This document shows, one piece after another, positions 8,430 through 52,882 of a DNA stretch of 57,988 nt. The position numbers and the translations under genes were made by a program. Below the pieces are notes generated by a model that saw nothing but the letters and a program-made list of their open reading frames with translations, did no database searches and had not been told where the DNA came from. The DNA comes from Patescibacteria group bacterium. GTDB taxonomy: Bacteria > Patescibacteriota > Minisyncoccia > 2-02-FULL-40-12. The DNA lies in NCBI GenBank assembly GCA_038065855.1, contig JBBTQD010000013.1:1-57988 (forward strand), read 5' to 3'. Positions within the stretch are counted from its first letter, which is position 1; every line of letters starts with the position of its first letter.

Positions 8430-8487
8430 ATTTGCAAAAAATCATTCCTTGCGGAATTCGTGGTTTTTTGGAAGAATTAGTTCAATT

Positions 8488-18076: not shown

Positions 18077-18089
18077 CAACTCACCATAA

Positions 18090-23250: not shown

Positions 23251-23255
23251 ATAGT

Positions 23256-24710: not shown

Positions 24711-24711
24711 C

Positions 24712-32391: not shown

Positions 32392-32445
32392 TCCTAAAAA
32401 TCAAAGTCTTGACTTCTAAAGACTGCGGGTTTTTAATTGCCAAAT

Positions 32446-33021
32446 ATGGCAAAAATCTCTGATCAGATATTTAAGTCAATTCAGGCAAAAATTGATTTAT
32501 TAAAGGATTTTGACCAAATCATGAATATTGATCTAGCCGGCCGTCAGATTATAGATGTTTTGAATAAGGGCAATAAGATTTTAATTGCCGGAAACGGCGG
32601 ATCAGCCGCTGATGCCCAGCATTTTTCGGCGGAACTGGCCGGGAAATTCATATCTGTAAGAAAAGGCCTTCCGGCAGTTGCTTTGACTACTAATTCTTCA
32701 AATATAACTGCGATAGCCAATGACTTTGGCTATGATCAAGTTTTTGTCAGACAGCTTGAAGCTTTAGCAAAACCAGGCGATGTATTTTTTGGGATTTCAA
32801 CCAGCGGCAATTCTGAAAATTTAATAAAAGCTTTGGAATGGGGAAGAAATAATAATTTGATTAATATAGGATTACTTGGCAAAGGCGGCGGGAAAATGAA
32901 AGACTATTGCGATGTTTCAATAATCGTGCCTTCAGACAACACTCAAAACATCCAAGAATCACATATTATGATTATTCATATCCTTTGTCAGATGATTGAT
33001 GAAGCGTTTAGTGGAAAATAA
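32446..33021 (+). CDS. gmhA: D-sedoheptulose-7-phosphate isomerase (SIS domain)
   Basis: ILIAGNGGSAADAQHFSAELAGKF...LPAVALT...TAIANDFGYDQVF.RQL...GDVFFGISTSGNS.N is the classical GmhA signature. I prefer the ATG at 32446 over the listed TTG at 32437. Confidence 0.85.
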   Translation: MAKISDQIFKSIQAKIDLLKDFDQIMNIDLAGRQIIDVLNKGNKILIAGNGGSAADAQHFSAELAGKFISVRKGLPAVALTTNSSNITAIANDFGYDQVFVRQLEALAKPGDVFFGISTSGNSENLIKALEWGRNNNLINIGLLGKGGGKMKDYCDVSIIVPSDNTQNIQESHIMIIHILCQMIDEAFSGK

Positions 33022-33023
33022 AG

Positions 33024-33059
33024 AAGGCCTTGCAAATCGGGAGTGATTTGCAAGGCCTT
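33024..33059 (-). terminator. Perfect 15-bp hairpin between convergent gmhA and the radical SAM gene
   Basis: aaggccttgcaaatc-gggagt-gatttgcaaggcctt. On the minus strand it is followed by ttctttatttt. It lies 27 nt downstream of the rSAM stop. Confidence 0.6.
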
Positions 33060-33086
33060 GAGGATTCATCCCCACGCTGTCGGGGG

Positions 33087-34856
33087 CTACATGTCCAGAA
33101 TTCGGAGGGTTTGGCCGGAGTCGACGTACTCGCGGGCTTGCAGGAACACGTCATTAGGCATGTCGCTGAAGTTCAGCGGTTCGCCGTCCGGGCCGTGAAG
33201 GAGCTTGGTGGCGTCGTCCAGTTCCAGGCAGTAGTTGTAGAACGCTTCGTCGCAGACAGGTTCCCACTTGCCATCGGCCAGTTGGAAGTTCAGGCCAAAG
33301 ACTCGTGTGAGCTCGGCCCGCACCTTGGGGTGATTAATTAGCTCCGTCCCCGGATACCAGGTGAGAGTGAACATGTTTTTGTTCACTGCTTCCTCCGGTA
33401 TGCCGAAGGTTGCGTAGTAATCAATTTGCCACTTCATGAAAGCAACCGTTTGCTTAAGCCGTTCCAACGTTTCGCTGGGGTTGCCCATAATCCAGGTGCA
33501 GTTAGAGTGGATTCCCGCTTCCATGGTGTGCTTGATGCCGTAGACCATGGCTTTGGGAAACCAGTACCTGCGGCCGTCAATCGATACCGGAATCAGGCCG
33601 GCTCTGGTGGTAAATCCTCCTTTACCGAGTTCTTCAAGGGTGTCCAGGTGGGCGCTTTCAGGCCCGAAGCCGATGTAGCGACAGCCGGCCTCGGCCATGA
33701 GATTAACCCTAAGCGGATCCTCAAAGATATAGTCAGTAAAAAAGTTTCTTTCCTTGGACGACTGGGCTGGGTTAGGTTTCAAACCAGCGGCTTCGTCGAG
33801 ACGGGTGTGGGTGCCCCAAGGAATCTTAATGCCTTCCGCGACAATGATATCACGGAGCTCCTTGATCCTCTTGAATGTCACCGCAAAGTTGTCATCCGGC
33901 CAGCTTTTAAAGGCAATGCCGTACTTTGCGGTGTGTTCTTTGATCTCCTCGACCAGATGGCGGGCGGATCTTACATGCCATTTGCGTTCTCCTTGGGCCC
34001 CTCGGTAGCAGTACTTGCAGCCGTAGGGACAACCGCGGGAAGAAACGGAAGTGGTTTTCGGCGCGGTTACAAACGGAGCAGCCGAGCTGTTGTTGGCGCT
34101 CAACCCCCAGGCTTCTGTTTGGATGTACTTTTCGAGGACTTTTTCTCCGTCAACATCTTCTTTTAGAAGCTCGAGATCAGCCCAAGGGAATCTGTCGAGG
34201 TCATCAGGCCTGTCGCCTTCATACATCAGGCGGCCGGAGCCGTCTTTCAGGAGATACGGTTCTAGTTTGCCTGAATTGAGAGCGTGCCGTCTGCTGAATC
34301 GTCGTATGGTCGCCGCGTCGCAGCAGATTTTGACGATGATATCGTCGCCTTCGGAGTGGGCTACCGCATCAAGTTCGGGAATGTAGTTAAACAACCCCGT
34401 CTTCAATTCAGTGGCCAGTCCTCCGCCGGAAACGAGCATCGTATGAGGCACAAGCCGACGGACCATCTTTGCCACAGCTTTCTGCCATTTCAAGGTGGTG
34501 ATCATGCCAGAGAGACAAACAAGATCCGGCTCTCCAAATCTGACGAAGTGGCGTTTGATTTTGTCAAAAGCCTCTTCTTGGGTGAGATGGCGACCATTCA
34601 CTAACCCACGTTTTTGAGCGAGTTCGTCTTTTCTCCGGTAAGCATTGAGGTCGATGAGAGATGCATTGACCCCGTAGTTCCGGATTAGGTTAGTTGCCAT
34701 CAACAATGGTCCCTCGGGTGTGGTGTTTGGTACCGCTGTTTCCCGAAGCGGCATATTGATAAAAACAACGTTTAGCCCCTCAACATCTCTTGTTGCAATG
34801 CCCCTTATCACCTCTGAAGGATGGATATGGGGCTGGATTACGTTTAGATTCGTCAT
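33087..34856 (-). CDS. B12-binding-domain radical SAM enzyme (class B rSAM)
   Basis: N-terminal Rossmann-like cobalamin domain (VVFINMPLRE...PDLVCLSGMITTLKWQKAVAKMVRRLVPHTMLVSGGG). CX3CX2C cluster motif SSRGCPYGCKYCY. ATG at 34856 sits 6 nt after AAGGAGG (34863-34869, rc). The listed TTG at 34862 lies inside the SD spacer. Sampled GC is about 57%. Confidence 0.85.
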   Translation of the reverse strand: MTNLNVIQPHIHPSEVIRGIATRDVEGLNVVFINMPLRETAVPNTTPEGPLLMATNLIRNYGVNASLIDLNAYRRKDELAQKRGLVNGRHLTQEEAFDKIKRHFVRFGEPDLVCLSGMITTLKWQKAVAKMVRRLVPHTMLVSGGGLATELKTGLFNYIPELDAVAHSEGDDIIVKICCDAATIRRFSRRHALNSGKLEPYLLKDGSGRLMYEGDRPDDLDRFPWADLELLKEDVDGEKVLEKYIQTEAWGLSANNSSAAPFVTAPKTTSVSSRGCPYGCKYCYRGAQGERKWHVRSARHLVEEIKEHTAKYGIAFKSWPDDNFAVTFKRIKELRDIIVAEGIKIPWGTHTRLDEAAGLKPNPAQSSKERNFFTDYIFEDPLRVNLMAEAGCRYIGFGPESAHLDTLEELGKGGFTTRAGLIPVSIDGRRYWFPKAMVYGIKHTMEAGIHSNCTWIMGNPSETLERLKQTVAFMKWQIDYYATFGIPEEAVNKNMFTLTWYPGTELINHPKVRAELTRVFGLNFQLADGKWEPVCDEAFYNYCLELDDATKLLHGPDGEPLNFSDMPNDVFLQAREYVDSGQTLRILDM

Positions 34857-34965
34857 TTCCAACCTCCTTGGTAAGGTGCGAAAAGTTCAGAATTATATTA
34901 TCTATTATTTTTTCAAAAATTACAACAATTGACGCGGACTCAAATTATTGTTATTTAAATCTAAT

Positions 34966-35529
34966 ATGACTAAAAAACTTTTAGAGAAATTCAGAAAAGT
35001 AAAAATTCTTGCCCTTGATAATGACGGTGTGCTTACGCCTTTGTATCTTGATACAGGTGTGATTATGACCAAAGAAGCGGCCAGTCAGCATACTGGCCGG
35101 GATTTCGTTTATGTTTTTGAATCAGCCAGATACTCTCATAAAGACGGCCAGGGCATTGATTTAGTGCGTAAGGAAAATGTTGGAGTATCAGTTTTTATTT
35201 TAACGACCCAAAGAAGCGGTTACGTTCAAGCTCGGGCTTGGAAGCTCGGTGTGCCTTTAGTTCAGAATAAAGATAAGGTTGTTGGATTAAAAGAATACTT
35301 AAAAGAAAATTATCCTAAAGTGAGTATGAAAGAAATTTGTTTTGTTGGCGATAGTACCGGCGATATTGAGATAATGAAACTAGTTGGCGTTTCAGCCTGC
35401 GTGGCTGACGGTGCCAAAGAAGCAAAAAAAGTCGCTGATTATGTTACCAAGGCAAAAGGCGGCGATGGAGCAGTAAGAGAAGTCTGTGATTTAATTATTG
35501 AAGCTAAAACTGGCTCCAAAAGAAAATAA
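34966..35529 (+). CDS. KdsC-type HAD-IIIA sugar-acid phosphate phosphatase, divergent copy (#1)
   Basis: ILALDNDGVLT (DxD motif I); VGDSTGDIE (motif IV); C-terminal ADYVTKAKGGDGAVREVCDLII. Carries a ~30-aa insertion after motif I relative to copies #2 and #3. Confidence 0.65.
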   Translation: MTKKLLEKFRKVKILALDNDGVLTPLYLDTGVIMTKEAASQHTGRDFVYVFESARYSHKDGQGIDLVRKENVGVSVFILTTQRSGYVQARAWKLGVPLVQNKDKVVGLKEYLKENYPKVSMKEICFVGDSTGDIEIMKLVGVSACVADGAKEAKKVADYVTKAKGGDGAVREVCDLIIEAKTGSKRK

Positions 35530-35536
35530 TTAGTTA

Positions 35537-36421
35537 ATGGAAAATATTAAACTGTTTCTGCTTTTTATGATTCCCGGCACTTTTTTCGCCGGGCTTTTAG
35601 ACGTAGTAATTCGGTACGCTTTAAGAGAAGGGAAAATAAATGAGAGGCTGCTCCTTGCTTTTAATTTTTTGTTTTCCGGAATTTTGATTTCTTTTCTTTT
35701 TATTTTTTTCTTTGATTTTCCAGAAATCAAACAAGGTTTTTGGCTGGCTTTATTTATGACTTCTGTTATAGGGATGTTCGGCCACTGGACTTACTACAAG
35801 GCCTTTAGTCAGGATGATGCTTCGGTAATTTCTCCAACCAGATTATTGACTCCGCCGTTTGTTTTGATAACCGGTTTTTTTATTTTGGGTGAGAAAGCAT
35901 CTTTTTGGGGTATGGTCGGTGTTTTAACTACAATAGCCGGGCTTTGGTTTTTAGTTAATCCTGAAGGTAAAAAACTTAGCTTGGCTGGAGTTTTTGAGCA
36001 TAAAGGCATACTATTAGGGATACTAGGTGCTTTGTTTTTCGCATTCTCGTTTCCTTTTGATAAAAAAGCAGTAGTAACATCATCGGCTTTGTTTTTCTCG
36101 GCTGTTTATTTGGTTGTTGTTGGATTTGCTAGTCTGATCATTTACGCCGTTCAGAAAAAAGATTTTTCTATTTATAGAAATTTAAAAGCGAACTGGCGGA
36201 TTATTTTTTTGATGGTTGCGGTGAATATCGCCGGTTTTTTCCTGACTGCCCAGGCTCTCAATTATACATTGGCCGCTTATGCCGCCAGCGTTAAACGGCT
36301 TTGGTCATTTTGGGCGGTTGTGTTAAGCGGCCAACTTTTGGGCGAGAAAGATATAGGCCGAAGGTTAGCTGCTACCAGTATAATGCTTAGCGGCATAGTG
36401 ATAACGACTTTGTTTGGATGA
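35537..36421 (+). CDS. EamA/DMT-family transporter
   Basis: 294 aa with about 10 TM helices in two similar halves; the ends match typical EamA repeats (...ISPTRLLTPPFVLITGFFILGEK...; ...ASVKRLWSFWAVVLSGQLLGEK...). Confidence 0.65.
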   Translation: MENIKLFLLFMIPGTFFAGLLDVVIRYALREGKINERLLLAFNFLFSGILISFLFIFFFDFPEIKQGFWLALFMTSVIGMFGHWTYYKAFSQDDASVISPTRLLTPPFVLITGFFILGEKASFWGMVGVLTTIAGLWFLVNPEGKKLSLAGVFEHKGILLGILGALFFAFSFPFDKKAVVTSSALFFSAVYLVVVGFASLIIYAVQKKDFSIYRNLKANWRIIFLMVAVNIAGFFLTAQALNYTLAAYAASVKRLWSFWAVVLSGQLLGEKDIGRRLAATSIMLSGIVITTLFG

Positions 36422-36423
36422 AT

Positions 36424-36948
36424 TTATTTAATTTTTCCTTCTTTGGCTAAAACAACTAAATCGCAGATTTCTCTTACTGCATGATCCCCGCCTTTTCTTT
36501 TAGTTATATAATCAGCTACTTTTTTACAATTCGGATTAGCGTCAGCAACAGTAAAAGACAGTCCAGCATATTGCATACATTCTAAATCGTTCCAGTCATC
36601 ACCCATAAAAGCCGCCTCCGAGGGGTTTATCTTTTTTTCTTTAAGGATTTTTTTAAAGAGAGTTAATTTATCGTTTATCCCGTGAGCATATTCAGTTTTA
36701 AGTTTTTTACTTCGCGTGGCCACTATTTTGTTTGGTTCTTTTGAAATAACTATTAATTTAAGGCCAAGACGTTGCAATTCATTAATACCCAGTCCGTCTT
36801 TGCGACTACAAACAACATGTTCAATTCCATCTTCGCTCAATATAACCTTTCCATCAGTAAAGATGCCATCAAAATCAAAACCGATGAGTTTAAGTTTTTT
36901 AAGTTTTAGTAAAAGTTTTTTAGGAATTTTTATATAGTTGTTTGACAT
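36424..36948 (-). CDS. KdsC-type HAD-IIIA phosphatase (#2)
   Basis: LIGFDFDGIFTDG...CSRKDGLGI...ISKEPN...MGDDWNDLECMQYAGLSFTVADA...ADYITKRKGGDHAVREICDLV. Confidence 0.8.
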   Translation of the reverse strand: MSNNYIKIPKKLLLKLKKLKLIGFDFDGIFTDGKVILSEDGIEHVVCSRKDGLGINELQRLGLKLIVISKEPNKIVATRSKKLKTEYAHGINDKLTLFKKILKEKKINPSEAAFMGDDWNDLECMQYAGLSFTVADANPNCKKVADYITKRKGGDHAVREICDLVVLAKEGKIK

Positions 36949-36970
36949 ATTATTGATTTAATTATATAAG
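36942..36970 (+). promoter_or_regulatory. Sigma70-like promoter candidate for the P-loop gene
   Basis: TTGACA (36942-36947), 17-nt spacer, TATAAG (36965-36970). About 48 nt upstream of the ATG at 37019, with AAGGAGG at 37007-37013. Confidence 0.45.
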
Positions 36971-37018
36971 TTATTAGTTCGAAAAAGTCAATAGTAATTT
37001 ACCAAAAAGGAGGATGAG

Positions 37019-37753
37019 ATGGATAGTAATCAAAGAATCTTGGTTGGGGTTTTTTCCGGATTGGTCTTCAGCGGTAAGTCGTTCTTTCGGACTTGGGTGA
37101 TGAGTCTGCCCGATTACAAGGACGCCGTGTTTGTAGCCATGGATGACATCCGTCAGCGCTTCTGGCCGAAGAGAAGCGACACTCACATCGTTAAGACCGA
37201 GCATGTTTTCAAGAACGAGGCGACTCGGTTTGAAGTGAAGACCAAGTTGATAATAGAGAGGCCGCTAGCTGTGTTTCTGGAAATGGTGATGCTGACTCGT
37301 GAGGCTCATCAGCGGCCATTTGTGGAGATGATTAAGAGCGTGAATGAGTACCTTCAGACCATCGGAAGAGAAGAGGCCCAGAGAGACGGCAAGCCAGCTT
37401 CCGAATCACCAGTTGAAGTGGATTTCAGGTGCATCTACTTTTACTGTGATTTAGAGACGGTAAAACGGCGAATCGGTTATCGCCAGCGGGAGTTGGAAAC
37501 CGTCGGTAATATATTTAATGCCAGCGTGTTCGATTTCAGCGGTTTCCTGCGCGGAGCCCAACAGATTGAGATTCCGCCGGCTGGCTACATCCCTTTGTAC
37601 CTTGATACTTCAGACGAGTCGGAAGCGGCACTGACTCGCCAGCGCGAAGAGATTCTTTCTTTTTTGAGAGGCGAGATGCCGATCAGTGAAGAAGAACTTC
37701 AGAGACGCGCTGTCGATGCAGTCAGTTTTCTTGACGAAGCTCGTCGTGCCTAA
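37019..37753 (+). CDS. P-loop NTPase / putative small-molecule kinase
   Basis: Walker A GLVFSGKS at the N-terminus (ILVGVFSGLVFSGKS), 244 aa, acidic C-terminal tail. Sampled GC is about 53%. Strong SD. Confidence 0.5.
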   Translation: MDSNQRILVGVFSGLVFSGKSFFRTWVMSLPDYKDAVFVAMDDIRQRFWPKRSDTHIVKTEHVFKNEATRFEVKTKLIIERPLAVFLEMVMLTREAHQRPFVEMIKSVNEYLQTIGREEAQRDGKPASESPVEVDFRCIYFYCDLETVKRRIGYRQRELETVGNIFNASVFDFSGFLRGAQQIEIPPAGYIPLYLDTSDESEAALTRQREEILSFLRGEMPISEEELQRRAVDAVSFLDEARRA

Positions 37754-37780
37754 AATGGTGAATAGGTCGGTAAGAGGCCA

Positions 37781-37816
37781 AAGGCGGAATCTGAAATTTG
37801 ATTCCGCCTTTTTAAT
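37781..37816 (+). terminator. Rho-independent terminator
   Basis: aaggcggaatc-tgaaattt-gattccgcctt followed by tttaatt. Confidence 0.7.
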
Positions 37817-37846
37817 TATGTTAGCTTATATAAATTAAGTAAATTT

Positions 37847-38668
37847 ATGAAGAAGATTCACTTTTCTTACTTTAATATTAAACTTAAGGCTTCAAAGGTT
37901 AAATTAAGTTACTTTGATCGTCCTGGCAAAAAAGGGACGATTGTTTTCATCCACGGTTTAGGCTGTTCAAAAGAAGATTTTATCAATGCCGTAAAAGTTA
38001 AAGGACTTAAAGATTATGAAATTTTTGTTTTTGATTGGCCGGGAGCGGGCAGATCTTCTTACCCTTCTAAAAAGAGTTTAGGGATTAATGATTTAGTTGA
38101 AGTTATTGATTATGTTGTTAAGAAATTTTCATTTAAAAAGTTTATTTTGGTTGGCCATAGTCTTGGTGGAGTAGTCGGTCTTTTATACAGCGTGAAGCAC
38201 CCCCGAAAAGTAGCTGGTTTCATAAATATAGAAGGTAGTTTAGTTTCTCGGAATGCCCGATGGTCTCGAAAGATTAGAAAAATGGGTTTTAGAATCTTTA
38301 AAAATGGGCCGTTTCAGGAATTGAAATCTGCTTTAAAAAAATCTAAAAATTTTGGTTTCAGAAAATACGCCAAAACTTTAGATTCGGTTTTAATAAAATC
38401 TTACTTTGATTTTAGTGTTTCTCACGCCAAAATTTGTAAAAATGAATATCTTCTCAAAAAGTTTTTGGAACTAAAATTACCCAAAATTTTTATTCATGGC
38501 GCAGAAAATAAAAACTGGGTGCCAGTTATAAAGAAATTAAAAAAGAGCGGATGTTCAGTTGCAGGCATATCTAAAAGTCATCACTTTTCATTTATTGATA
38601 ATCCGTCTCTATTTTATAAAGTATTGGCTAAATTTGCTGATGAAGTTTTTGCCAACCAAAAATCTTGA
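37847..38668 (+). CDS. Alpha/beta-fold hydrolase
   Basis: IVFIHGLGCSKEDF (oxyanion region); LVGHSLGG nucleophile elbow; C-terminal SHHFSFIDNP (His). Sampled GC is about 30%. Confidence 0.75.
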   Translation: MKKIHFSYFNIKLKASKVKLSYFDRPGKKGTIVFIHGLGCSKEDFINAVKVKGLKDYEIFVFDWPGAGRSSYPSKKSLGINDLVEVIDYVVKKFSFKKFILVGHSLGGVVGLLYSVKHPRKVAGFINIEGSLVSRNARWSRKIRKMGFRIFKNGPFQELKSALKKSKNFGFRKYAKTLDSVLIKSYFDFSVSHAKICKNEYLLKKFLELKLPKIFIHGAENKNWVPVIKKLKKSGCSVAGISKSHHFSFIDNPSLFYKVLAKFADEVFANQKS

Positions 38669-38693
38669 CAAAAACATTTTATTCTTTTATATT
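38665..38693 (+). promoter_or_regulatory. Sigma70-like promoter candidate for the methyltransferase-cupin pair
   Basis: TTGACA (38665-38670, overlapping the hydrolase stop codon), 17-nt spacer, TATATT (38688-38693). About 70 nt upstream of the ATG at 38766. Confidence 0.5.
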
Positions 38694-38765
38694 CTTTCAA
38701 GCTTCGAGGGATTAAAACCAGCCTCGTTTTAAAAATTAAAGATGAGTTCTAAAGGAAGGTGAAAA

Positions 38766-39845
38766 ATGAACAGCGGTCCGATTCACGCCTATGATCCCAA
38801 AGGCGATCTTTTTGAAGGTTTGTTCCCGGTCATTTATTCTGTTGAAGGCTGGGTTCGCGGTTCGTATCTGCGTCAATCTCAGAATTCAGCACTTCTAGCC
38901 GAAATGGCAAGCGGCGGTCTGAGAGGCAAGGATATTTTAGACATCGGCTGTGGCTACGGTACCACCGCCTTTGCTATTTCTAGCTTCTTCCCGGCCTCAA
39001 TAACGGCTATTGATAGCTCCAAGGCAATGATCGAAATGATGAGGTTTTTGCTTTTGGAGAATGGCGATATTGAGGTATGGTTGATTCAGAGAGGAGCTAA
39101 AGAGGTTTTGGGCCGGCGGTTTGAGCGTACGGCCGAGTACCTGAAGTTTTTCCGGCGATGCTTTCGTCAGAACAGCTTCTGGGCTGAATCCGCTAATCTC
39201 AAAGTAGTCAACTCACTCTTGATGGATTTTTCTTCAAATGTTCCTTTTGATGTGGCTATCGCCAATAATGTTCTTCATTGGCCGGTCAACCAACTCAAGA
39301 AGAAGCACGAAGAAGGGGGACGCAAGCCTGAAACCGACGACTGTATCGTGGAGGCGTTGTTGAAAGTCAAGACTCTTTTGAAGCCTGGCGGAACTCTAGT
39401 GATGATGGAGCCCCGCCAGGTTACCGCCTTAGATACAGATTCTTCTCGAGCAAAAAACTTCGACAAGTTCGGTTCCAACAGCAATCCTGTGTTCGTTAAG
39501 CTGAACCTAACTCTGAATAGGATTCTTATGGAGAGGTACTCTATCGAAAGAGGTGCTCCAAAGGACATCGAGATGTTTAGGACCAGCCGGATGCGGGATT
39601 TGGGCAATAAAGCCGGTTTTGAACTTGAGAGGATGGTTGTGATTGAAGAACCGTCCTTCATCAGGTCGGTTGATTTTTATCCGACCATCATTCCAATCAA
39701 TCTGGCGACTGTGGGTCTGCCATTGACAGAAAAAGTCAAAATCATTCGTGAAGCCGAGGCTGAACTGAATGACACTTTGACTGAAGAAGAAAAGAATCTG
39801 CCAATGCAATCCCAAGCCTTCTACTTCGTTTTCCGGACGGTTTAG
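38766..39845 (+). CDS. Class I SAM-dependent methyltransferase with large insertions
   Basis: ILDIGCGYGTTAFAI (motif I), ITAIDSSKAMIE, FDVAIANNVLHW, LKPGGTLVMMEP. 359 aa. Confidence 0.7.
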   Translation: MNSGPIHAYDPKGDLFEGLFPVIYSVEGWVRGSYLRQSQNSALLAEMASGGLRGKDILDIGCGYGTTAFAISSFFPASITAIDSSKAMIEMMRFLLLENGDIEVWLIQRGAKEVLGRRFERTAEYLKFFRRCFRQNSFWAESANLKVVNSLLMDFSSNVPFDVAIANNVLHWPVNQLKKKHEEGGRKPETDDCIVEALLKVKTLLKPGGTLVMMEPRQVTALDTDSSRAKNFDKFGSNSNPVFVKLNLTLNRILMERYSIERGAPKDIEMFRTSRMRDLGNKAGFELERMVVIEEPSFIRSVDFYPTIIPINLATVGLPLTEKVKIIREAEAELNDTLTEEEKNLPMQSQAFYFVFRTV

Positions 39846-39860
39846 CCCGAAGGAGAAAAA

Positions 39861-40322
39861 ATGAGCGAGCTAAGACCATTCAGGTATGTGTTAGCTAAAA
39901 CAGTCAAAGATTTTTTTGACTGTCCTCTAGAACGGGGAAGCCGCGTTCTGGAAGGATCGAAGAAACTCTACGAAGAGGGGTTTCCGGCCAGATTCGTCCG
40001 GAACTTTCACGTGGAGCATCGGCTGGCCGAAGTTCATCTTCACGAGGATGATGTTTTTTTCTGCATGTACGGTAGTGTTCGCTTCGTTCTCGGTGGCCGG
40101 CTCGTTGATCCTTGGACAAAGAATGGCCTGACTTTCCTTGCAGACAGCATCGAGGGCGGCGAGGAAGTTGTTCTTTCCGATGGCGACTGGCTGCACATCC
40201 CGGCTGGCCAGGCCCATCAGCACTTTACTTCAAACTTTTGCCACTTGATGGTGGTGAAGACAGCTCCGCCGGAAGGCAAGGTCCGGTTGGAGTATTTAGA
40301 GGGCATCGAGATCAAAACCTGA
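39861..40322 (+). CDS. Cupin-fold protein
   Basis: HLHEDDVFFCMYGSVRFVLGG...GDWLHIPAGQAHQH resembles a two-motif cupin. GAAGGAG SD lies 5 nt upstream of the start. Confidence 0.55.
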   Translation: MSELRPFRYVLAKTVKDFFDCPLERGSRVLEGSKKLYEEGFPARFVRNFHVEHRLAEVHLHEDDVFFCMYGSVRFVLGGRLVDPWTKNGLTFLADSIEGGEEVVLSDGDWLHIPAGQAHQHFTSNFCHLMVVKTAPPEGKVRLEYLEGIEIKT

Positions 40323-40333
40323 TCTTAATTGCG

Positions 40334-40366
40334 AACGGGTTCGCCAGATGGCGAACCCGTTTTACT
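40334..40366 (+). terminator. Rho-independent terminator at a convergent junction
   Basis: aacgggttcgcc-agat-ggcgaacccgtt followed by ttactttta. The T-tract runs into the stop codon of the convergent cytidylyltransferase gene. Confidence 0.65.
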
Positions 40367-40367
40367 T

Positions 40368-41105
40368 TTATATCTTTAGAATCCCTTTCTTTCTTAGTTT
40401 CTGAAATTTCATTTCTGCGTCAGCCCACTCATCAGGAGTATTGATGTCAGCCTCGTAATTTGACGGGTCGGGGATGATATAAAGTTCCACTTTATTGCCG
40501 TAAAGATTAGATTTTTTCTCAAAAAGATTTTTTGGCTTTAAGACATAGATAAGGTCATTCCGGGCATAGCACTTTTGCGGAAAGTCCTGGCTCCGGGTAA
40601 TGATATTTTTCAAACTTACTCCGCCCCAGAGACTGACTTTTCCTTTTGGAGAGCGAATTAGAGTCCAATAAGGTGTATGATTGGCTGGAGTTTCATTGAC
40701 TGCCACGACCGAGCTAACCTTCTTCTTTTTGAAAATTTCAATTGCTTCGTCAATGTGGCGGGTTTGTCTTAAGGGGGCAGTAGGCATTAAAAGAACCAAA
40801 GCATTGGCCTTGTAATTCTCGTTTTTCAAAAGCCATTCATAAGCGTGTTTCAAAGTCGGCTCGATACCAATAGTCGGGATAGCTAACTCGGCTGGTCTTA
40901 AAAACGGGACTTCAGCACCGTATTTTTTGGCGATTCTGGCGATTTCTTTATCGTCGGTGGAAACGATTACTCGATCTAGCTGTTTGCTTTTAAGGGCGTT
41001 TAAAATAGTCCAGGCAATCATTGGCTTGCCGCAGAAGTTCCTTATATTTTTTTTCGGTATTCTCTTTGACCCGCCCCGCGCCGGGATAACTGCTACGATT
41101 TTCAT
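40368..41105 (-). CDS. Acylneuraminate/ulosonate cytidylyltransferase (CTP_transf_3 family)
   Basis: MKIVAVIPARGGSKRIPKKNIRNFCGKPMIAWTI...VIVSTDD...LRPAELA.... Confidence 0.85.
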   Translation of the reverse strand: MKIVAVIPARGGSKRIPKKNIRNFCGKPMIAWTILNALKSKQLDRVIVSTDDKEIARIAKKYGAEVPFLRPAELAIPTIGIEPTLKHAYEWLLKNENYKANALVLLMPTAPLRQTRHIDEAIEIFKKKKVSSVVAVNETPANHTPYWTLIRSPKGKVSLWGGVSLKNIITRSQDFPQKCYARNDLIYVLKPKNLFEKKSNLYGNKVELYIIPDPSNYEADINTPDEWADAEMKFQKLRKKGILKI

Positions 41106-41145
41106 GATGCGTTAACTTTAAATCATTCTTATTTGTAAATCAATA

Positions 41146-41694
41146 TTGGACAAAAATAACGATATATTTTATAGTGTTTCAGTGAAAAAAGTTTCTTCTG
41201 TTTTGGAGAAAAAATTAAAAAACATTAAATTCATCGGCTTTGATTTTGACGGGGTTTTTACTGATGCCAGAGTTTATCTTAACCAAGATGGTGTTGAAAC
41301 TATAGTTTGCAGCCGGCGTGACAGCTTGGGCCTTAATCAGATTCGGAAACTTGGGATAAAGCTTGCCGTCATCTCTATGGAGCCGAATCCGGTCATTACC
41401 AAGCGCTGCGAAAAACTAAATATCCCTTGTCATACAGGTAAAGAAAAACTGCCGATGTTTAAGGAAGTTATAAAGTCAGAAAAATTAAAACCAAACCAAG
41501 TCGCTTATTTTGGCGATGACTTGAATGATTTGGAGTGTCTGAAATATGCTGGTTTAGCTTTTACCGTCGCCGATGGCGCGCCGGCCTGCTTAAAAGAAGC
41601 CGACTACGTGACCGAAAGGCGAAGCGGAGATCATGCTGTCAGAGAAGTTTGCGACCTTATTCTCAAAGCCCACAAAGTTAGCCGCTACTTATAA
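41146..41694 (+). CDS. KdsC-type HAD-IIIA phosphatase (#3)
   Basis: FIGFDFDGVFTDA...CSRRDSLGL...ISMEPN...FGDDLNDLECLKYAGLAFTVADG...ADYVTERRSGDHAVREVCDLI. About half the residues are identical to copy #2 by eye. The listed start is TTG, so the exact start is uncertain. Confidence 0.8.
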   Translation: MDKNNDIFYSVSVKKVSSVLEKKLKNIKFIGFDFDGVFTDARVYLNQDGVETIVCSRRDSLGLNQIRKLGIKLAVISMEPNPVITKRCEKLNIPCHTGKEKLPMFKEVIKSEKLKPNQVAYFGDDLNDLECLKYAGLAFTVADGAPACLKEADYVTERRSGDHAVREVCDLILKAHKVSRYL

Positions 41695-42506
41695 TGAAAA
41701 ATCCAATCGGCATAATGCAGGGGCGGTTATCGCCTTCACTTGACGGAAGATTTCAGTTTTTCCCCAGTGACTGGCAGGCCGAATTTAAAATTGCCAAAGA
41801 GTTAGGCTTTGATTTGATTGAGTGGTTTGTTGATTATAGAGACGACGAGCCAAACTCGGTCGGTTTATGGACAGACGATTCAACCAGAAAAAAGATTGAG
41901 GAAGCTTCTAAAATAGTTTCGGTTGTTTCGGCTGATTGCGGCCGACTGGGTCTTTCCGGTAAAAGTTTTTCTGAAAAGTTATTCAAAGATTTTATCTCTT
42001 CGGCTTCCGGAAAAATAAAAACATTCAATATCCCGCTTCTGGAAGAAGCTTCAATTAAGGATGAATTAGCCAGAAAAGAGGCGCTTCAAAACATTGAACA
42101 AATTTTGGAATACGCCGATAAATTTGATGTCCGGATTGGTTTGGAGGTGGATCTAAGAGCCGAAGAACTACTGGATTTTATAAATAAGATCAATTCTTCA
42201 AGAATAGGAGTTTGCTATGATATTGGGAACTGCACTTCCTACGGTTTTAATTGTCCGGAAGAAATAAGAATTTTGGGCGATAAAATATTTGAAGTTCATT
42301 TAAAAGACCGGAAAGTCGGCGGCAATCAGTCGATGACTTTAGGAGAGGCCGATGCCGACTTTGATGGTTGCTTTTTGGCTCTAAAAGAGATAGGATATAA
42401 AGGCAATTATATCTTACAGGCTTGGCGCGGTAAGGATTATCTTGACGATGCCAGAAAACAGCTTGAATTTACCAAAAATAAACTAAATAACCCTGAAAAT
42501 GTCTAA
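41694..42506 (+). CDS. Xylose-isomerase-like TIM-barrel sugar(-phosphate) isomerase/epimerase
   Basis: PIGIMQGRLSP...AKELGFDLIEW...GLEVD...CYDIGN...EVHLKD... gives the metal-ligand spacing of the AP_endonuc_2 / UlaE-SgbU-like family. Confidence 0.65.
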   Translation: MKNPIGIMQGRLSPSLDGRFQFFPSDWQAEFKIAKELGFDLIEWFVDYRDDEPNSVGLWTDDSTRKKIEEASKIVSVVSADCGRLGLSGKSFSEKLFKDFISSASGKIKTFNIPLLEEASIKDELARKEALQNIEQILEYADKFDVRIGLEVDLRAEELLDFINKINSSRIGVCYDIGNCTSYGFNCPEEIRILGDKIFEVHLKDRKVGGNQSMTLGEADADFDGCFLALKEIGYKGNYILQAWRGKDYLDDARKQLEFTKNKLNNPENV

Positions 42507-43320
42507 ATCATTGGAATCTTTTTCACTGAAAGACAAAGTTATAATTATTACCGGCGGAACCGGGAATTTGGGAGTTGATTATTGCGCCGGCCTTTTAAAA
42601 GCCGGAGCCACGGTTATATCTTGGGATTTAAATCCTAAAACAGAAGAAGTTTCAAATAAACTTAAAGAACGCGGCGCCGACACAAATAGGTTTCACAATC
42701 TTAAGGTTGACATTACCAGCGAATCAGAAGTTCAGGCGGCGGTTCAAAATTGTCTTAATTCTTTCGGAAAGATTGACGCATTGATAAATAATGCGGCCAT
42801 GAATCCGGCTGTCGGCATTGACGAGTCAAAAAAATTGTTTGTTCCTTATGAAGAATACCCGATAGAGCTTTGGGAAAAGGAGCTGAAGGTCAATCTTACC
42901 GGGATGATGATTTGTACCAAATCGGTGGCGCCGACAATGATGAAACAGAAAAACGGCTCAATAGTGAATATTGCTTCTGAAGTGGCTAACATTGCCCATG
43001 ATCACAGAGTTTATAACGAACCGGATAAATTTAAGTCGGTTGCCTATGTGACCACCAAGACCGGTATTTTGGGATTTACTCGGCAATGGGCCGCCCGGCT
43101 CGGTTCTTACAATATCCGAGTAAACGCTTTTTCTCCGGGTGGTGTTCAATCGCCGAATGTGCCTAAAGACTTTGCTGAAAGATTCGGCCGGATGAATATG
43201 TTCGGCCGGATGGCCCAACCAGGTGAGTATAACGGCGTGATTATTTTTCTCTGTTCTGATGCTTCTTCTTTTATGACCGGCGCCAATCTGACCGTTGACG
43301 GTGGCAAAAGTGCCTGGTAA
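42499..43320 (+). CDS. Short-chain dehydrogenase/reductase
   Basis: VIIITGGTGNLG; NNAAMNP; S...YVTTK (Ser-Tyr-Lys triad). Confidence 0.85.
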   Translation: MSKSLESFSLKDKVIIITGGTGNLGVDYCAGLLKAGATVISWDLNPKTEEVSNKLKERGADTNRFHNLKVDITSESEVQAAVQNCLNSFGKIDALINNAAMNPAVGIDESKKLFVPYEEYPIELWEKELKVNLTGMMICTKSVAPTMMKQKNGSIVNIASEVANIAHDHRVYNEPDKFKSVAYVTTKTGILGFTRQWAARLGSYNIRVNAFSPGGVQSPNVPKDFAERFGRMNMFGRMAQPGEYNGVIIFLCSDASSFMTGANLTVDGGKSAW

Positions 43321-43400
43321 ATTTAATTTGATGCTTAATCCTCTTGCCAAGTTGGCGAACTTTCTTCGTCTGCGCCCCTCTTTAGAAACAGGAGATGTCC

Positions 43401-43436
43401 AAGGCGCGATGCCCCCATCGCGCCTTTCTTTTTTAT
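43401..43436 (+). terminator. Rho-independent terminator after the SDR gene
   Basis: aaggcgcgatg-cccc-catcgcgcctt followed by tctttttt. It lies inside the listed ORF 43395..44474, which argues that ORF really starts downstream. Confidence 0.7.
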
Positions 43437-43460
43437 ATTGCATTTGGTAAGATTATTTTA

Positions 43461-44474
43461 ATGCCTCTATTTCCTAAGAGATTTTTCCCTCGCCTGGTCC
43501 GGTTCATTACCGGCCGTTCTGCCGAAACCACTCAAGACGTATATATTAATGGTATTGCAGTCGGTCGAGCCAAGTCCTGTTTTTTTGTCGCCGAAATAGG
43601 GATTAATCATAATGGTTCGATTGAAATAGCCAAGAAGCTTATTGATGTAGCAAAAGATGCCGGCGCCCAAGCAGTTAAATTCCAAAAGCGGACTGTACCG
43701 GTTGTATATTCGGTCGAAGAGCTGGCCAAGCTCAGAGCCGTGGATAGGGGAGTTTTGGAAAATGCAATTAAGCGCGGAGTTTTGTCAAAAGAAGCAGTCG
43801 AACGTTTGAAAAAATCAGATTTTAAAGATTCGACCAATGGCGATTTGAAATGGGCTTTGGAATTCACTGAAGCCGAATATAGGGAAATTGACCGATACTC
43901 TAAAGAAAAAGGAATTTTCTGGTTTGCCTCACCTTGGGATGAAGCCAGTGTTGATTTTCTGGAAAAATTAAATCCACCCTGTCACAAAGTTGCTTCAGCT
44001 ATGCTTACCCACACTGGAATTTTGAGAAAACTTAGAGAAGCTGGGAAACCGGTGATCGCATCAACTGGCATGAGTACAATGGAAGAAGTTAAAAATGCGG
44101 TCAATCTTTTATCCGGCATTCCTTTAGTTTTACTTCATACTGTTTCAACTTATCCGGCTAAAGAGGAAGAAGTGAATTTAAGGACGATTGCTAAATTTAG
44201 ACAGGAGTTTCCGAAAATCCCGATAGGTTATAGCGGCCACGAACAAGGAATTGCAGCAACTTTAGCAGCTGCTACTTTAGGCGCCCATGTGATTGAAAGA
44301 CATATCACTCTTGATAAAAAAATGTTCGGTACCGATCAGTCAGCTAGCTTAGAGCCTCAGGAATTTGGCCAAGTTATTAAAGAAGTCCGGGAGATTGAGA
44401 AAGCTTGGGGAGATGGCGTCAAAAGAGTCTGGCCCTCGGAGATTCCGATTAAAGAAAAACTCCGAAAAGTTTAA
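43461..44474 (+). CDS. NeuB-family PEP-condensing sugar-acid synthase, without the C-terminal SAF domain
   Basis: CFFVAEIGINHNGSIEIAKKLIDVAKDAGAQAVKFQKR...FASPWDEASVDFL...KVASAML...STGMSTMEEV...LLHTVSTYPA...NLRTI...IGYSGHEQGIA...GAHVIERHITLDK...DQSASLEP. Ends about 20 aa after the TIM barrel. ATG at 43461 chosen because the terminator lies upstream. Confidence 0.8.
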   Translation: MPLFPKRFFPRLVRFITGRSAETTQDVYINGIAVGRAKSCFFVAEIGINHNGSIEIAKKLIDVAKDAGAQAVKFQKRTVPVVYSVEELAKLRAVDRGVLENAIKRGVLSKEAVERLKKSDFKDSTNGDLKWALEFTEAEYREIDRYSKEKGIFWFASPWDEASVDFLEKLNPPCHKVASAMLTHTGILRKLREAGKPVIASTGMSTMEEVKNAVNLLSGIPLVLLHTVSTYPAKEEEVNLRTIAKFRQEFPKIPIGYSGHEQGIAATLAAATLGAHVIERHITLDKKMFGTDQSASLEPQEFGQVIKEVREIEKAWGDGVKRVWPSEIPIKEKLRKV

Positions 44475-44517
44475 TAAGCTTTAAAGTTTTTCAGTTATCC
44501 GCTAAGGCGGTTTTTTG

Positions 44518-44546
44518 TTGACAGATTTTAGTTATTCTTATACTCT
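44518..44546 (+). promoter_or_regulatory. Weak sigma70-like promoter candidate for the GT-B-like gene
   Basis: TTGACA (44518-44523), 17-nt spacer, TACTCT (44541-44546). Then AAGGAGG (44564-44570) and TTG start at 44577. Confidence 0.35.
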
Positions 44547-44576
44547 ATATGTGGTAATTTCACAAGGAGGTGATAA

Positions 44577-45686
44577 TTGGGAAAGAACTTTTTGTTTGTT
44601 TGCGGCGATATCGGTGGAGCTAGTATGATGGTCTCGGTGGTTCACTCTCTTCAATCCGCCGGCCATAATATCAAGTTTGTGGTTGATGGAGAAGGTGTCG
44701 GTTATCAAGTTTTGCTTGGAGTTCGAATCAGCTTTGAAGTTCAGTTCGAACCGACTTCTTCGGGATCATTTCACATCCCCGCTGATGAAGCAGACCTTGT
44801 TTTTATTAGCACTTGCGCCAGTACCAATAAGATTGGGAAGGCCTATGCCCGAGCTTTTCGTGGCGTCAAGCCGGTAGTTTTCGGTGCTGATGGCTTTTTC
44901 AACCACGGCTACAAGTGGCGCGAAGACGAAGCCGATTTCTGGTTTGCCATCAACGAAGCACACGCCGAGGCGATTCGTTCTCTCCGGCCGCAGCTTGATT
45001 CCGGCCGGGTGAGAGTTGTCGGTCAGCCGGCGTTTGACTCATTGATGGAATTTATTCCGAGGAAGGAACAGATCAGGAATGAACAGCGTCAAGCCTTGGG
45101 AATCGGAGAAAATAAGAAGATGTTTCTTTGGTTTTCTCAAGGTATGCCCGAGGTGATCGAAGAAGACCTGGAGATGATGGCAGAAGGTATAAAATTGTTA
45201 GAACCACTGGCGCCCTACTCTGTTTTCATCCCAAGAGTTCATCCTAAATTGGATAAGCTCAAGTCCGGTTGGGTTGAGAAGATCTACGGCGACTTCGAGC
45301 ATCTCTGTCAGCTCTACGGCATACAGTTTATCAGGGCTGACAAAATCAAAGGCGAAGAGCTATGTCTGGCTTCCGATGTCATTCTTTCAATCACCGCAAC
45401 TGATGACATCAAAAACTGGATGATGGGCGGTCCGCCGGTGATTCACCTGATGGGTCCGCGCGTCAGGCAGTGGTTTGAAAAGGATCTCTTGCTTTCGCCG
45501 CCTTTTTACTTGCCAGATGTTAAATCTGGTGAGGCGCTGGCTGTAACGTCAAGTGAAGAATGGGAAAAAGTGTTGAGGCAAGCACTCGACCCTTCTACCT
45601 GTCAGTTGCTTAGAGAGAAATGGCAGGCACCGCGAGAAAAAGCGACTAAAAAGGTTGCTCGTACTCTAGTTGAACTTGCTTTTTGA
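44577..45686 (+). CDS. Hypothetical GT-B-like protein (glycosyltransferase or NDP-sugar hydrolase/epimerase-like)
   Basis: 369 aa. N-terminal FLFVCGDIGGASMMVSVVHSLQSAGH resembles the first Rossmann beta-alpha of GT-B enzymes, and VRVVGQPAFDSL sits at the domain junction. TTG start lies 6 nt after AAGGAGG. Sampled GC is about 60%. Confidence 0.4.
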   Translation: MGKNFLFVCGDIGGASMMVSVVHSLQSAGHNIKFVVDGEGVGYQVLLGVRISFEVQFEPTSSGSFHIPADEADLVFISTCASTNKIGKAYARAFRGVKPVVFGADGFFNHGYKWREDEADFWFAINEAHAEAIRSLRPQLDSGRVRVVGQPAFDSLMEFIPRKEQIRNEQRQALGIGENKKMFLWFSQGMPEVIEEDLEMMAEGIKLLEPLAPYSVFIPRVHPKLDKLKSGWVEKIYGDFEHLCQLYGIQFIRADKIKGEELCLASDVILSITATDDIKNWMMGGPPVIHLMGPRVRQWFEKDLLLSPPFYLPDVKSGEALAVTSSEEWEKVLRQALDPSTCQLLREKWQAPREKATKKVARTLVELAF

Positions 45687-45697
45687 AATTGTCTCAT

Positions 45698-45729
45698 AAA
45701 GGCCGCTTCGGCGGCCTTTCGTCTTTTTA
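45698..45729 (+). terminator. Rho-independent terminator
   Basis: aaaggccgc-ttcg-gcggccttt (GNRA-like/UUCG loop) followed by cgtcttttt. Confidence 0.7.
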
Positions 45730-48862: not shown

Positions 48863-48893
48863 TCTATTAATTAAATATCACCTAACTTTATAT

Positions 48894-52855: not shown

Positions 52856-52882
52856 GTCATTTTTTGCTATGATTTTTGAGCT

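Follow-up and report, generated by a model that had tools for sequence, protein, structure and literature searches.

Shine-Dalgarno-led, GC-rich genes in a glycan locus of a Patescibacteria group bacterium appear to be native members of a sialic-acid-like sugar pathway

Introduction

How far can base composition and expression signals be trusted to mark a gene as imported? The question is raised by a stretch of 57,988 nucleotides (nt) from a Patescibacteria group bacterium (assembly GCA_038065855.1, contig JBBTQD010000013.1; the whole stretch is called the window below). Five of its genes, encoding a radical S-adenosylmethionine (rSAM) enzyme, a P-loop protein, a methyltransferase, a cupin and a protein of GT-B fold, differ from their AT-rich neighbours in G+C content and in having canonical Shine-Dalgarno (SD) sequences, and hairpins with T-runs adjoin them. 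A first-pass annotation had read them as foreign tailoring enzymes recruited piece by piece or, alternatively, as a separately regulated set. Composition, SD sequences and terminators of this kind look like textbook imported DNA; here they appear to be conserved, gene-family-specific expression traits, and the five genes appear to be native, conserved pathway genes and not recently imported foreign DNA. The alternative of a separately regulated set fits the data, while recent piecemeal recruitment is not supported, in view of syntenic, co-diverged orthologues, of relatives within the Patescibacteria and of SD sequences and terminators that are conserved by family. The locus is a worked counter-example to island-calling that relies on composition and signals only, and it calls for caution in candidate-phyla genomes.

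Material and comparison sets

The five genes were compared with the other 50 of the 55 genes in the window. Look-ups of exact proteins and scans of collections supplied the sister genomes, and a scan of one genome per species gave 59 loci with the rSAM gene, to which 8 metagenome loci were added; individual loci carry L numbers. The starts of the longest open reading frames (ORFs; TTG, or ATG at 43395) are probably wrong for several genes. The rSAM of the window is encoded on a 147.8-kb contig of the European Nucleotide Archive from the 0.1-µm fraction of Hainich groundwater well H51. A second, independent replicate assembly has the identical gene arrangement; an assembly chimera is ruled out by the occurrence of this arrangement in two independent assemblies and in sister genomes. 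NCBI assigns the protein to a 'Patescibacteria group bacterium', and with its named relatives this makes the window a stretch of a Parcubacteria genome. In Pfam scans glycan biosynthesis takes up nearly the whole window as one giant region, after which come secA, msrB, secF and a Mur ligase, and the glycan cluster around the locus also has a flippase, a Wzy-like ligase and an initiating transferase. To the left of the window the contig holds further glycosyltransferases and no SD-led genes.

Results

Five outliers among 55 genes

The five genes and their signals are listed by position in the window; GC3 is the G+C fraction at third codon positions, GC1 and GC2 those at first and second positions, and energies are those of SD duplexes.

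33024..33059, where the SIS (+) and rSAM (-) genes converge: perfect hairpin of 15 bp flanked by T-runs; predicted bidirectional terminator
33087..34856, minus strand: class-B-type rSAM enzyme, 589 aa, GC3 0.62; Pfam Radical_SAM and weak B12-binding match
34863..34869, minus strand: SD AAGGAGG of the rSAM gene, 6 nt ahead of the ATG; -12.1 kcal/mol; kept in L003, L004, L070 and L068
34897..34925, minus strand: promoter-like TTGTAA-17-GATAAT of the rSAM gene, then a leader of ~33 nt; consensus match
36942..36970, plus strand: promoter-like TTGACA-17-TATAAG of the P-loop gene; ~88% conserved against L003
37007..37013, plus strand: SD AAGGAGG of the P-loop gene; -10.9 kcal/mol
37019..37753, plus strand: P-loop gene, AAA_33-like, putative kinase, 244 aa, GC3 0.57; weak Pfam AAA_33 match
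37780..37816, plus strand: 12-bp hairpin and T-run, predicted terminator of the P-loop unit; a different hairpin at this place in L003
38665..38693, plus strand: promoter-like TTGACA-17-TATATT overlapping the hydrolase stop codon; 11/12 consensus matches
38752..38762, plus strand: SD-like AAGGAAGGTGA of the methyltransferase gene; -11.4 kcal/mol; kept in L003
38766..39845, plus strand: class I S-adenosylmethionine (SAM) methyltransferase, 359 aa, GC3 0.53, first of a two-gene unit; Pfam match
39849..39855, plus strand: SD GAAGGAG of the cupin gene, within the 15 nt that separate it from the methyltransferase gene; -8.1 kcal/mol; AAGGAGG in L003
39861..40322, plus strand: cupin-fold gene, 153 aa, GC3 0.58; weak Pfam Cupin_2 match
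40333..40362, between the convergent cupin (+) and cytidylyltransferase (-) genes: 13-bp hairpin with T-runs; predicted bidirectional terminator
44518..44546, plus strand: putative GT-B-fold promoter with TTGACA and a weak -10 box, immediately downstream of the NeuB terminator 44495-44516; TTGACA kept in L004 and L074
44564..44570, plus strand: SD AAGGAGG(TGA) of the GT-B-fold gene, 6 nt ahead of the TTG start; -15.2 kcal/mol; kept in L004 and L074
44577..45686, plus strand: GT-B-fold protein, 369 aa, GC3 0.51; no Pfam family
45698..45729, plus strand: 9-bp GC hairpin and T-run, predicted to terminate the GT-B-fold unit; L004 and L073 have the identical hairpin

SD strength was taken as the hybridisation energy to CACCUCCUU. 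The five genes have the five strongest duplexes of the 55, at -8.1 to -15.2 kcal/mol where the background genes have a median of +0.3, 5-6 nt ahead of the start, and the canonical SD sequences of the first-pass annotation are indeed where it placed them. Upstream regions of the other genes are A/U-rich and depleted in G (5-19% G at -20 to -1), and 21 of the 48 same-strand junctions overlap, mostly as ATGA.

The same five genes hold five of the six highest GC3 values in the window, 0.51-0.62 against a mean of 0.365 (standard deviation, sd, 0.061) for the other 50 genes, that is z = 2.3-4.2, and a strong SD goes with GC3 of at least 0.5 (Fisher p = 1e-5). They are thus compositional outliers, as had been noted, although the earlier range of 50-60% G+C was slightly too high: whole-gene G+C is 0.53 for the rSAM gene, 0.50 for the P-loop gene, 0.47 for the methyltransferase, 0.52 for the cupin and 0.48 for the GT-B-fold gene (47-53%), with a window mean of 0.397.

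The transcription signals call for some caveats. All four hairpins named in the first-pass annotation are present and belong to the seven long-stem hairpins with T-run found in the 58-kb window. Two of them, however (33024-33059 and 40333-40362), also serve the AT-rich SIS and cytidylyltransferase genes in convergent pairs, and the totals of terminator-like and promoter-like sequences in the window are no higher than in shuffles. TTGACA boxes do lie at 36942, 38665 and 44518, and the one at 38665 is the best promoter-like match in 20-40 kb (11/12), but TTGAC-type -35 boxes also precede the native SIS gene, the HAD genes at 34966 and 36948 and the sugar transferase gene at 48862. The promoter type therefore does not set the five genes apart. 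The remainder of the window had been described as coupled chains nearly devoid of such signals; the AT-rich, SD-less NeuB gene is likewise flanked by terminators (43401-43426 and 44495-44516).

Codon choice

The extra G+C of the five genes is mostly synonymous choice within two-fold codon boxes, to which family-typical amino-acid make-up adds a part. Codons ending in C are preferred where either pyrimidine would do (NNY), those ending in G are preferred for Lys, Glu and Gln, and TTA, ATA and AGA are avoided; for a given fourfold G+C, the two-fold G+C of each of the five is 2.4-3.7 sd higher than the background relation would predict. At fourfold sites, where the background G+C is 0.43, the GT-B-fold gene (0.45) does not stand out. 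The methyltransferase (0.50), P-loop (0.55) and cupin (0.57) genes show a modest increase there, and only the rSAM gene (0.65) a clear one. The opposite pattern, high fourfold G+C with two-fold choice at background, occurs in GC-richer genes that have no SD (17387, 18090, 26415 and secA). These GT2, PMT_2, heptosyltransferase-like GT9 and secA genes occupy 17387-19412, 26415-27551 and 52883-55450, and the glycosyltransferases among them are more like true compositional, possibly lateral, outliers.

The same two-fold shift is seen in other genomes. In the P-loop family the change in C at NNY codons is +0.15 (7 of 8 genomes) and that in G at codons ending in a purine (NNR) is +0.21 (8 of 8), with +0.04 at fourfold sites, while in neighbour families the shift is zero or negative. 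In 41 of 45 Parcubacteria loci, GC-rich hosts included, the rSAM gene has a higher GC3 than the median of its flanks (p = 9e-9), and elevated values are scattered over the protein tree beside non-elevated sisters. Relative to flanks in 38 loci, C at rSAM fourfold sites is raised by 0.068 (p = 1e-7) and T lowered by 0.052, neither the change in G (-0.006) nor that in A is significant, and C at NNY codons is raised by 0.16 (positive in 34 of the 38 loci). The rSAM gene of L068 is syntenic, 79% identical and keeps SD and terminator, and has a GC3 of 0.37, the background value; its GC1 and GC2 are 0.53 and 0.39, compared with 0.56 and 0.40 in the window. The rSAM excess is therefore synonymous and tunable by lineage. 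From per-site synonymous rates, which are noisy and subject to parsimony bias, the rSAM gene would reach equilibrium at a GC3 of 0.57 and the adjacent HAD gene at 0.35; the same polarised substitution counts give 0.48-0.49 for two other neighbours.

These data bear on two alternative readings. One holds that the units are foreign or lateral cassettes from a GC-richer, SD-using donor that have not been ameliorated or, in a softer form, are exchanged in a plug-and-play manner among Parcubacteria of differing G+C. GC1, GC2 and GC3 of the five genes all lie above those of the neighbours, as such an origin would have it, and the rSAM gene has an excess of substitutions from G or C to A or T (S-to-W). 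In a gene recently acquired from a GC-richer genome, however, fourfold sites should be the first to carry the excess, in G and C alike; here the GT-B-fold gene matches the background at these sites and the methyltransferase is a little higher, while the P-loop and cupin genes are modestly and the rSAM gene clearly raised. The rSAM excess is specific to C and positive in 41 of 45 hosts, which random pairs of donor and recipient would not give, and L068 keeps SD and terminator at background GC3. Leaders and promoters are, moreover, AT-rich and of host type.

The other reading is GC-biased gene conversion at recombination hot spots in a hypervariable glycan locus. It would agree with a mosaic locus of discordant identities, with a GC3 elevation that recurs in independent lineages and with the joint rise of G and C at rSAM fourfold sites of the window clade relative to L068. 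Conversion should hit all site classes and both G and C, whereas across loci it is C and not G that rises at fourfold sites, and the shift is concentrated in two-fold boxes. It also stops at start and stop codons, leaving the leaders AT-rich, and neighbours in the same indel blocks are unaffected or even AT-richer (the hydrolase by -0.12 to -0.14). We give gene conversion a very slim chance of being the cause.

Sister genomes and the origin of the five genes

Comparison with sister genomes argues for a native origin. In L003/L006 the order of the rSAM, P-loop, methyltransferase and cupin genes is unchanged, and so are the AT-rich genes around them, in L004, L005 and L070 the rSAM gene lies between the same KdsC-like HAD and SIS genes, and in L004 and L074 the GT-B-fold gene follows NeuB. 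The same families are again GC3-high, SD-led and hairpin-terminated in these genomes. The synteny check proposed with the cassette hypothesis has thus turned against it, with orthologues at the same positions in L003, L004, L070 and L074. (L006 is labelled 'uncultured Candidatus Saccharibacteria', probably an automatic mislabel, as its proteins group with Yanofskybacteria/Parcubacteria.)

Between the window and L003, protein identity is 86% for rSAM, 79% for the P-loop protein, 76% for the methyltransferase and 79% for the cupin, compared with 71-92% for AT-rich neighbours. Over the sister genomes the five genes show 72-87% amino-acid identity (neighbours 66-92%) and a fourfold-site identity of 0.53-0.61 (neighbours 0.41-0.63). 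Matching divergence at amino-acid and fourfold sites indicates that the five genes have diverged together with their flanks.

Gene content is modular among close relatives, as had been suggested and as the foreign-cassette reading would also predict of self-contained units. The window and L003 both have the block from EamA to the cupin gene; it is different in L074, and L004, L070 and L068 lack it. The indel blocks nevertheless mix AT-rich with GC-rich genes, since the EamA, HAD, P-loop, hydrolase, methyltransferase and cupin genes are gained or lost together.

Nor do the nearest named homologues of the rSAM, methyltransferase and GT-B-fold proteins fall in different phyla, which had been one expectation. 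Parcubacteria contribute hundreds of homologues to the rSAM family. Among 745 rSAM homologues, all those with names among the best 120 belong to Patescibacteria/Parcubacteria or to an unclassified 'bacterium', and the named relatives include Yanofskybacteria, Azambacteria and Parcubacteria. The methyltransferase has 16 relatives, only two of them named and both from Patescibacteria; the GT-B-fold protein has 36 homologues, the named ones again Patescibacteria/Parcubacteria or unclassified 'bacterium', and most hits of the two families are nameless. No close homologue outside the candidate phyla radiation (CPR) was found for the rSAM, the methyltransferase or the GT-B-fold protein.

Pfam scans of the window gave no integrase or transposase families, in line with the first-pass annotation. 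No repeats bracket the units and no attC-like site was found, and the window has no tRNA genes. Integron, transposon and moron were therefore ruled out. An integron gene cassette was further rejected on the grounds that the units have promoter-like sites of their own and that their hairpins are perfect GC stems with T-runs, the geometry of terminators.

Some exchange has taken place all the same. Histories of the genes in the locus are discordant, and rSAM homologues of 44-51% identity occur in phyla outside the CPR. In L012 the neighbours are 72-79% identical to those of the window but the rSAM only 56%, with a GC3 of 0.71, which indicates allele replacement within the locus. The rSAM gene of L040 (Opitutia) has a GC3 of 0.29 in flanks of 0.52 and so looks foreign in the opposite direction, a case that the cassette reading can claim. 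Lateral exchange among Parcubacteria thus does occur and adds to the mosaic, even if it would not explain the signature. With divergence equal to that of the neighbours and mobility genes, attC-like sites and flanking repeats not found, we regard foreign cassettes as an unlikely origin of the five genes.

Signals conserved by gene family

The signals recur with the gene families. SD and terminator are found again, family by family, at 40-60% identity. With a permissive caller, and with the window clade set aside, SD sequences precede 55% of rSAM genes and 83% (5/6) of P-loop genes in Parcubacteria loci, compared with 11% of other ORFs and 4% of CMP-transferase (cytidine monophosphate transferase) genes. 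Counting all loci and the window, 7 of 8 members of the P-loop family are SD-led. In L015, with an rSAM of 57% identity, methyltransferase and cupin genes are SD-led, while the hydrolase gene is SD-less and has a GC3 0.14 below the locus median. Relatives of the GT-B-fold gene in further metagenome loci are mostly SD-led and sited after NeuB.

At the terminators it is function that appears to be kept. Sequences at orthologous positions are often unrelated but always form hairpins; at the position of 33024-33059, L003, L004 and L068 have unrelated hairpins, a point that could also be read in favour of foreign cassettes. The hairpin of 40333-40362 has a homologous counterpart with compensatory changes in L003. 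The region between the HAD and rSAM genes, which holds promoter and leader, is far better conserved than fourfold sites in five genomes. Taken together, these observations support the five genes being separate, self-sufficient expression units with leader, SD and predicted terminator, as the first-pass annotation had proposed.

The leaders themselves gave little evidence of structure. The rSAM leader CTGAACTTTTCGCACCTTACCAAGGAGG (34870-34890) is nearly invariant in four genomes and has a CACCTT able to pair with the SD; the CACCUU/AAGGAGG pairing is not significant (z = -0.8), and folding z-scores of the leaders (-1.1 to +0.9) show no significant structure. With these unremarkable scores and no Rfam match in the window, riboswitches and structured leaders were ruled out. 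In L074 an extra hairpin of ~35 nt is inserted in the rSAM leader (~1340-1420). The methyltransferase leader is ~65 nt long and has a small hairpin with T-run (about 38705-38730) just after the hydrolase stop codon, a different hairpin being found in L003; the element may terminate the hydrolase gene or act as an attenuator of the methyltransferase-cupin unit. In two divergent pairs, HAD/P-loop (36942-36948) and Wzy-like/sugar transferase (48888-48896), the start ATGTCAA of one gene, read on the other strand, is the -35 box TTGACAT of its partner, which makes these very compact shared control regions.

The sugar pathway

Judged from its NeuB, CMP-transferase, KdsC phosphatases, TIM-barrel epimerase, dehydrogenase and GmhA-like isomerase, the locus probably builds a sialic-acid-like (ulosonic or nonulosonic) sugar. 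NeuB matches PF03102 (E = 6e-73) and scores 253 bits with TIGR03569 (equivalog cut-off 400), and the CMP-transferase matches PF02348 (E = 3e-25) with a PseF score of 175 bits (cut-off 206). No protein of the locus reaches an NCBIfam equivalog cut-off, and these models assign none of the products N-acetylneuraminic acid (Neu5Ac), pseudaminic acid (Pse), legionaminic acid (Leg) or 3-deoxy-manno-octulosonic acid (Kdo).

In nearly all of the 59 loci, and in the 8 metagenome loci, the rSAM gene adjoins genes for NeuB, a short-chain dehydrogenase (SDR), a xylose-isomerase-like TIM-barrel epimerase, a KdsC-like HAD, a PseF-like CMP-transferase and a methyltransferase. The module is found in Yanofsky-, Azam-, Harrison-, Zambryski-, Vogel-, Taylor- and Ryanbacteria and sporadically outside the CPR in Polyangiaceae, Planctomycetota, Opitutia, Sphingomonadales and Gammaproteobacteria (rSAM 44-51% identical). 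By phylum, a NeuB/CMP-transferase module with an rSAM enzyme is common among Parcubacteria and turns up here and there in Myxococcota, Planctomycetota, Verrucomicrobiota and Proteobacteria; we found no description in the literature of an rSAM-containing ulosonic or nonulosonic acid pathway in these bacteria. The five genes therefore appear to be members of the pathway, with the rSAM at its core, and not add-on tailoring genes.

The rSAM protein has an invariant CxxxCxxC motif (C276/C280/C283) and a PF04055 match, and its N-terminus is predicted to be a Rossmann fold like that of cobalamin domains (PF02310 at 26 bits, cut-off 32). Its AlphaFold2 model (confidence score, pLDDT, 85) best matches TsrM, AprD4, OxsB, TokK and CysS in the PDB (E = 5e-15 to 1e-8). 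AprD4, which shares the fold, acts as a sugar diol-dehydratase and is not known to use cobalamin, so that methylation by the rSAM of the window cannot be assumed. The GT-B-fold gene usually lies directly after NeuB, and the protein model (pLDDT 90) matches the UDP-N-acetylglucosamine 2-epimerases 6vlb, 3dzc and 1f6d, of WecB/NeuC type, in Foldseek (E = 1e-11); fold and position suggest a NeuC/LegG-type step that would supply the synthase. The P-loop family is small, with only 80 representative clusters in 1.84 billion proteins, and homologues lie next to HAD and rSAM genes in L003, L013 and L078. The cupin has weak PDB matches to bicupin dioxygenases and homologues in L003, L014, L015 and L030.

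Discussion

What maintains the signature

On balance we favour, with confidence only slightly better than even, the explanation that the five genes belong to a conserved class of separately transcribed, SD-translated and codon-selected pathway genes in an otherwise SD-independent genome. Each would be, or head, a short transcription unit with a leader of 23-65 nt, a canonical SD and a hairpin terminator, while the rest of the segment would use SD-independent starts and translational coupling. Selection for efficient independent translation would then maintain both SD and codon bias, the likely driver being a need for high or independent protein output. This is most plausible for the rSAM: enzymes of this class turn over slowly, which would explain a need for more protein than neighbouring genes supply. 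Wobble rules allow that single tRNAs may read whole fourfold boxes; if they do so in a reduced tRNA set, selection on decoding would be expected to give the SD-led minority just the two-fold-box preference that is seen. What the data show is the pattern itself, the native origin of the genes and their inheritance along with the neighbours, SD and terminator kept by family, and a bias that recurs and is specific to site classes. That selection on expression is the cause, that the 16S anti-SD is intact and that the proteins have the enzymatic roles given above are inferred from sequence. If correct, two modes of translation initiation coexist within one locus of an ultra-small bacterium.

Several observations weigh against this explanation. 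Slow-growing bacteria with a single rRNA operon are not expected to have a strong codon bias driven by selection. A motif search of the 1.6 Mb of collected loci found no genes for ribosomal proteins, EF-Tu or other highly expressed products, and among unrelated ORFs of Parcubacteria loci a coupling of SD and GC3 was not found. Polarised substitutions in the rSAM gene are 94 S-to-W and 61 W-to-S, which fits slow decay from a higher G+C, and fourfold G in the window clade has risen along with C relative to L068. Gene trees of the locus are discordant: in L012 the neighbours are 72-79% identical and the rSAM only 56%. SD-led units are also not always GC-rich, since L074 has in a variable slot (3709-4446) a different unit of GC3 ~0.28, with TTGACA-17-TATTTT, AAGGAGG, an ATG at 3766 and a HAD-like protein. 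Finally, an anti-SD motif was detected in only 48% of Parcubacteria in a survey, and one subgroup reportedly has none (PMC9297842); beyond this survey we found no literature on SD use in these bacteria. The window and the 1.6 Mb of collected loci have no 16S rRNA gene.

A more specific variant, compatible with selection on expression and adding a control mechanism, is that the five SD-led genes form a translational regulon, translated only when the anti-SD is free, as in Bacteroidia. SD sequences are rare (~11% of ORFs with the permissive caller) and yet strictly conserved on a few families with 5-9-nt spacing, there is the precedent of rare SD-led genes so controlled in Bacteroidia (PMC7797042, PMC9976891), and the anti-SD and the ribosome composition of Parcubacteria are unusual (PMC9297842). 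The leaders, however, show no significant structure, and the SD-led set is defined from one type of locus only; we would give such a regulon a slim chance. Taken one step further, Parcubacteria, which would largely have abandoned initiation at SD sequences, may nevertheless keep a small, deeply conserved, SD-led and codon-optimised regulon read by a particular state of the ribosome, with the rSAM of an undescribed sialic-acid-like pathway as its best-conserved member and a radical-modified surface sugar that would be important for an episymbiotic lifestyle. This is a speculation of small probability.

For the SD-less genes that come first in their units, the spacing of TTGAnn and -10 boxes suggests leaderless or near-leaderless mRNAs. 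By eye, TTGAnn lies 37-38 nt ahead of five such native starts (SIS, HAD 34966, cytidylyltransferase, sugar transferase and secA) and 43 nt ahead of HAD 36948, and extended -10 boxes lie 7-9 nt ahead of NeuB and secA; the sites are at 32409, 34929, 40368-41145, 43425-43460, 48863-48900 and 52845-52882. Formal tests gave no significant enrichment: the null rate is 0.016 and 1 of 24 genes qualified, and 225 Parcubacteria ORFs show no positional peak.

Other features of the window

The neighbouring genes, identified by Pfam and NCBIfam matches, with the one promoter box among them, are as follows.

32446-33021, plus strand: SIS, GmhA-like; SD-less
34929-34934, plus strand: promoter box TTGACG of the HAD gene, overlapped by the divergent rSAM promoter-like site
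34966-35529, plus strand: KdsC-like HAD; SD-less
35537-36421: EamA; SD-less
36424-36948, minus strand: KdsC-like HAD; SD-less
37847-38668: alpha/beta hydrolase; SD-less
40368-41105, minus strand: PseF-like cytidylyltransferase; SD-less
41146-41694: KdsC-like HAD; SD-less
41694-42506: TIM-barrel epimerase; SD-less
42499-43320: SDR; SD-less
43461-44474: NeuB, with terminators 43401-43426 and 44495-44516 on either side; SD-less
45753-46700 and 46705-47406: methyltransferases; SD-less

Doubtful longest-ORF starts concern 34948-34966, 43395-43461, 8449-8488, 23235-23331 and 24685-24712. NeuB starts at 43461 in public gene calls, and the HAD start at 34966 is suggested by cross-genome alignment. An apparent SD ahead of 43395 is upstream of the called NeuB start, with the hairpin 43401-43426 in between. 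High G+C at second codon positions is found in 157-1020, 1478-2590, 30904-32391 and 51131-52855 (0.52-0.57 in three of the four); three of the four proteins have PG_binding_1 (peptidoglycan-binding) domains, and they are probably low-complexity cell-surface proteins.

Comparison with known systems

The closest likeness in translation initiation is with Bacteroidia, in which ribosomes ignore SD sequences save on very few genes, with an rpsU/bS21 circuit (PMC7797042, PMC9976891, PMC13000453). Here, too, most genes are SD-less, with A/U-rich, G-poor upstream regions, and a small set with strong SD is conserved. The differences are that this is another phylum, that the SD-led genes encode sugar-pathway enzymes and not a ribosomal protein, and that part of the Parcubacteria may lack the anti-SD altogether (PMC9297842).

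The codon bias can be compared to that of highly expressed genes (C-ending NNY codons, tRNAs with G34), being directional, synonymous, specific to site classes and conserved by gene family, with ATA, TTA and AGA avoided and little change at fourfold sites. It differs in affecting accessory sugar genes of an ultra-small, presumably slow-growing bacterium and in favouring G-ending codons for Lys, Glu and Gln as well. With islets, phage morons and integron cassettes the units have in common a small, self-contained make-up, atypical composition, end hairpins and variable presence. They differ in that no integrase, attC-like site, transposase or flanking repeat was found, in that orthologues are syntenic and co-diverged and the composition shift lies mainly outside neutral sites, and in that the hairpins resemble intrinsic terminators of the usual kind, and two of them also serve native genes on the convergent side.

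The rSAM itself shares domain order and CxxxCxxC motif with the class B enzymes TsrM, TokK, CysS, OxsB and AprD4, but only 13-16% identity. Finally, the module has in common with nonulosonic acid and Kdo loci (NeuB/NeuC/NeuA, PseI/PseF, KdsC) a NeuB, a PseF-like transferase, three KdsC-like phosphatases and a NeuC-like fold after NeuB. It differs from them by its ever-present class-B-type rSAM, and often adds a TIM-barrel epimerase, a GmhA-like isomerase, a P-loop kinase-like protein and methyltransferases.

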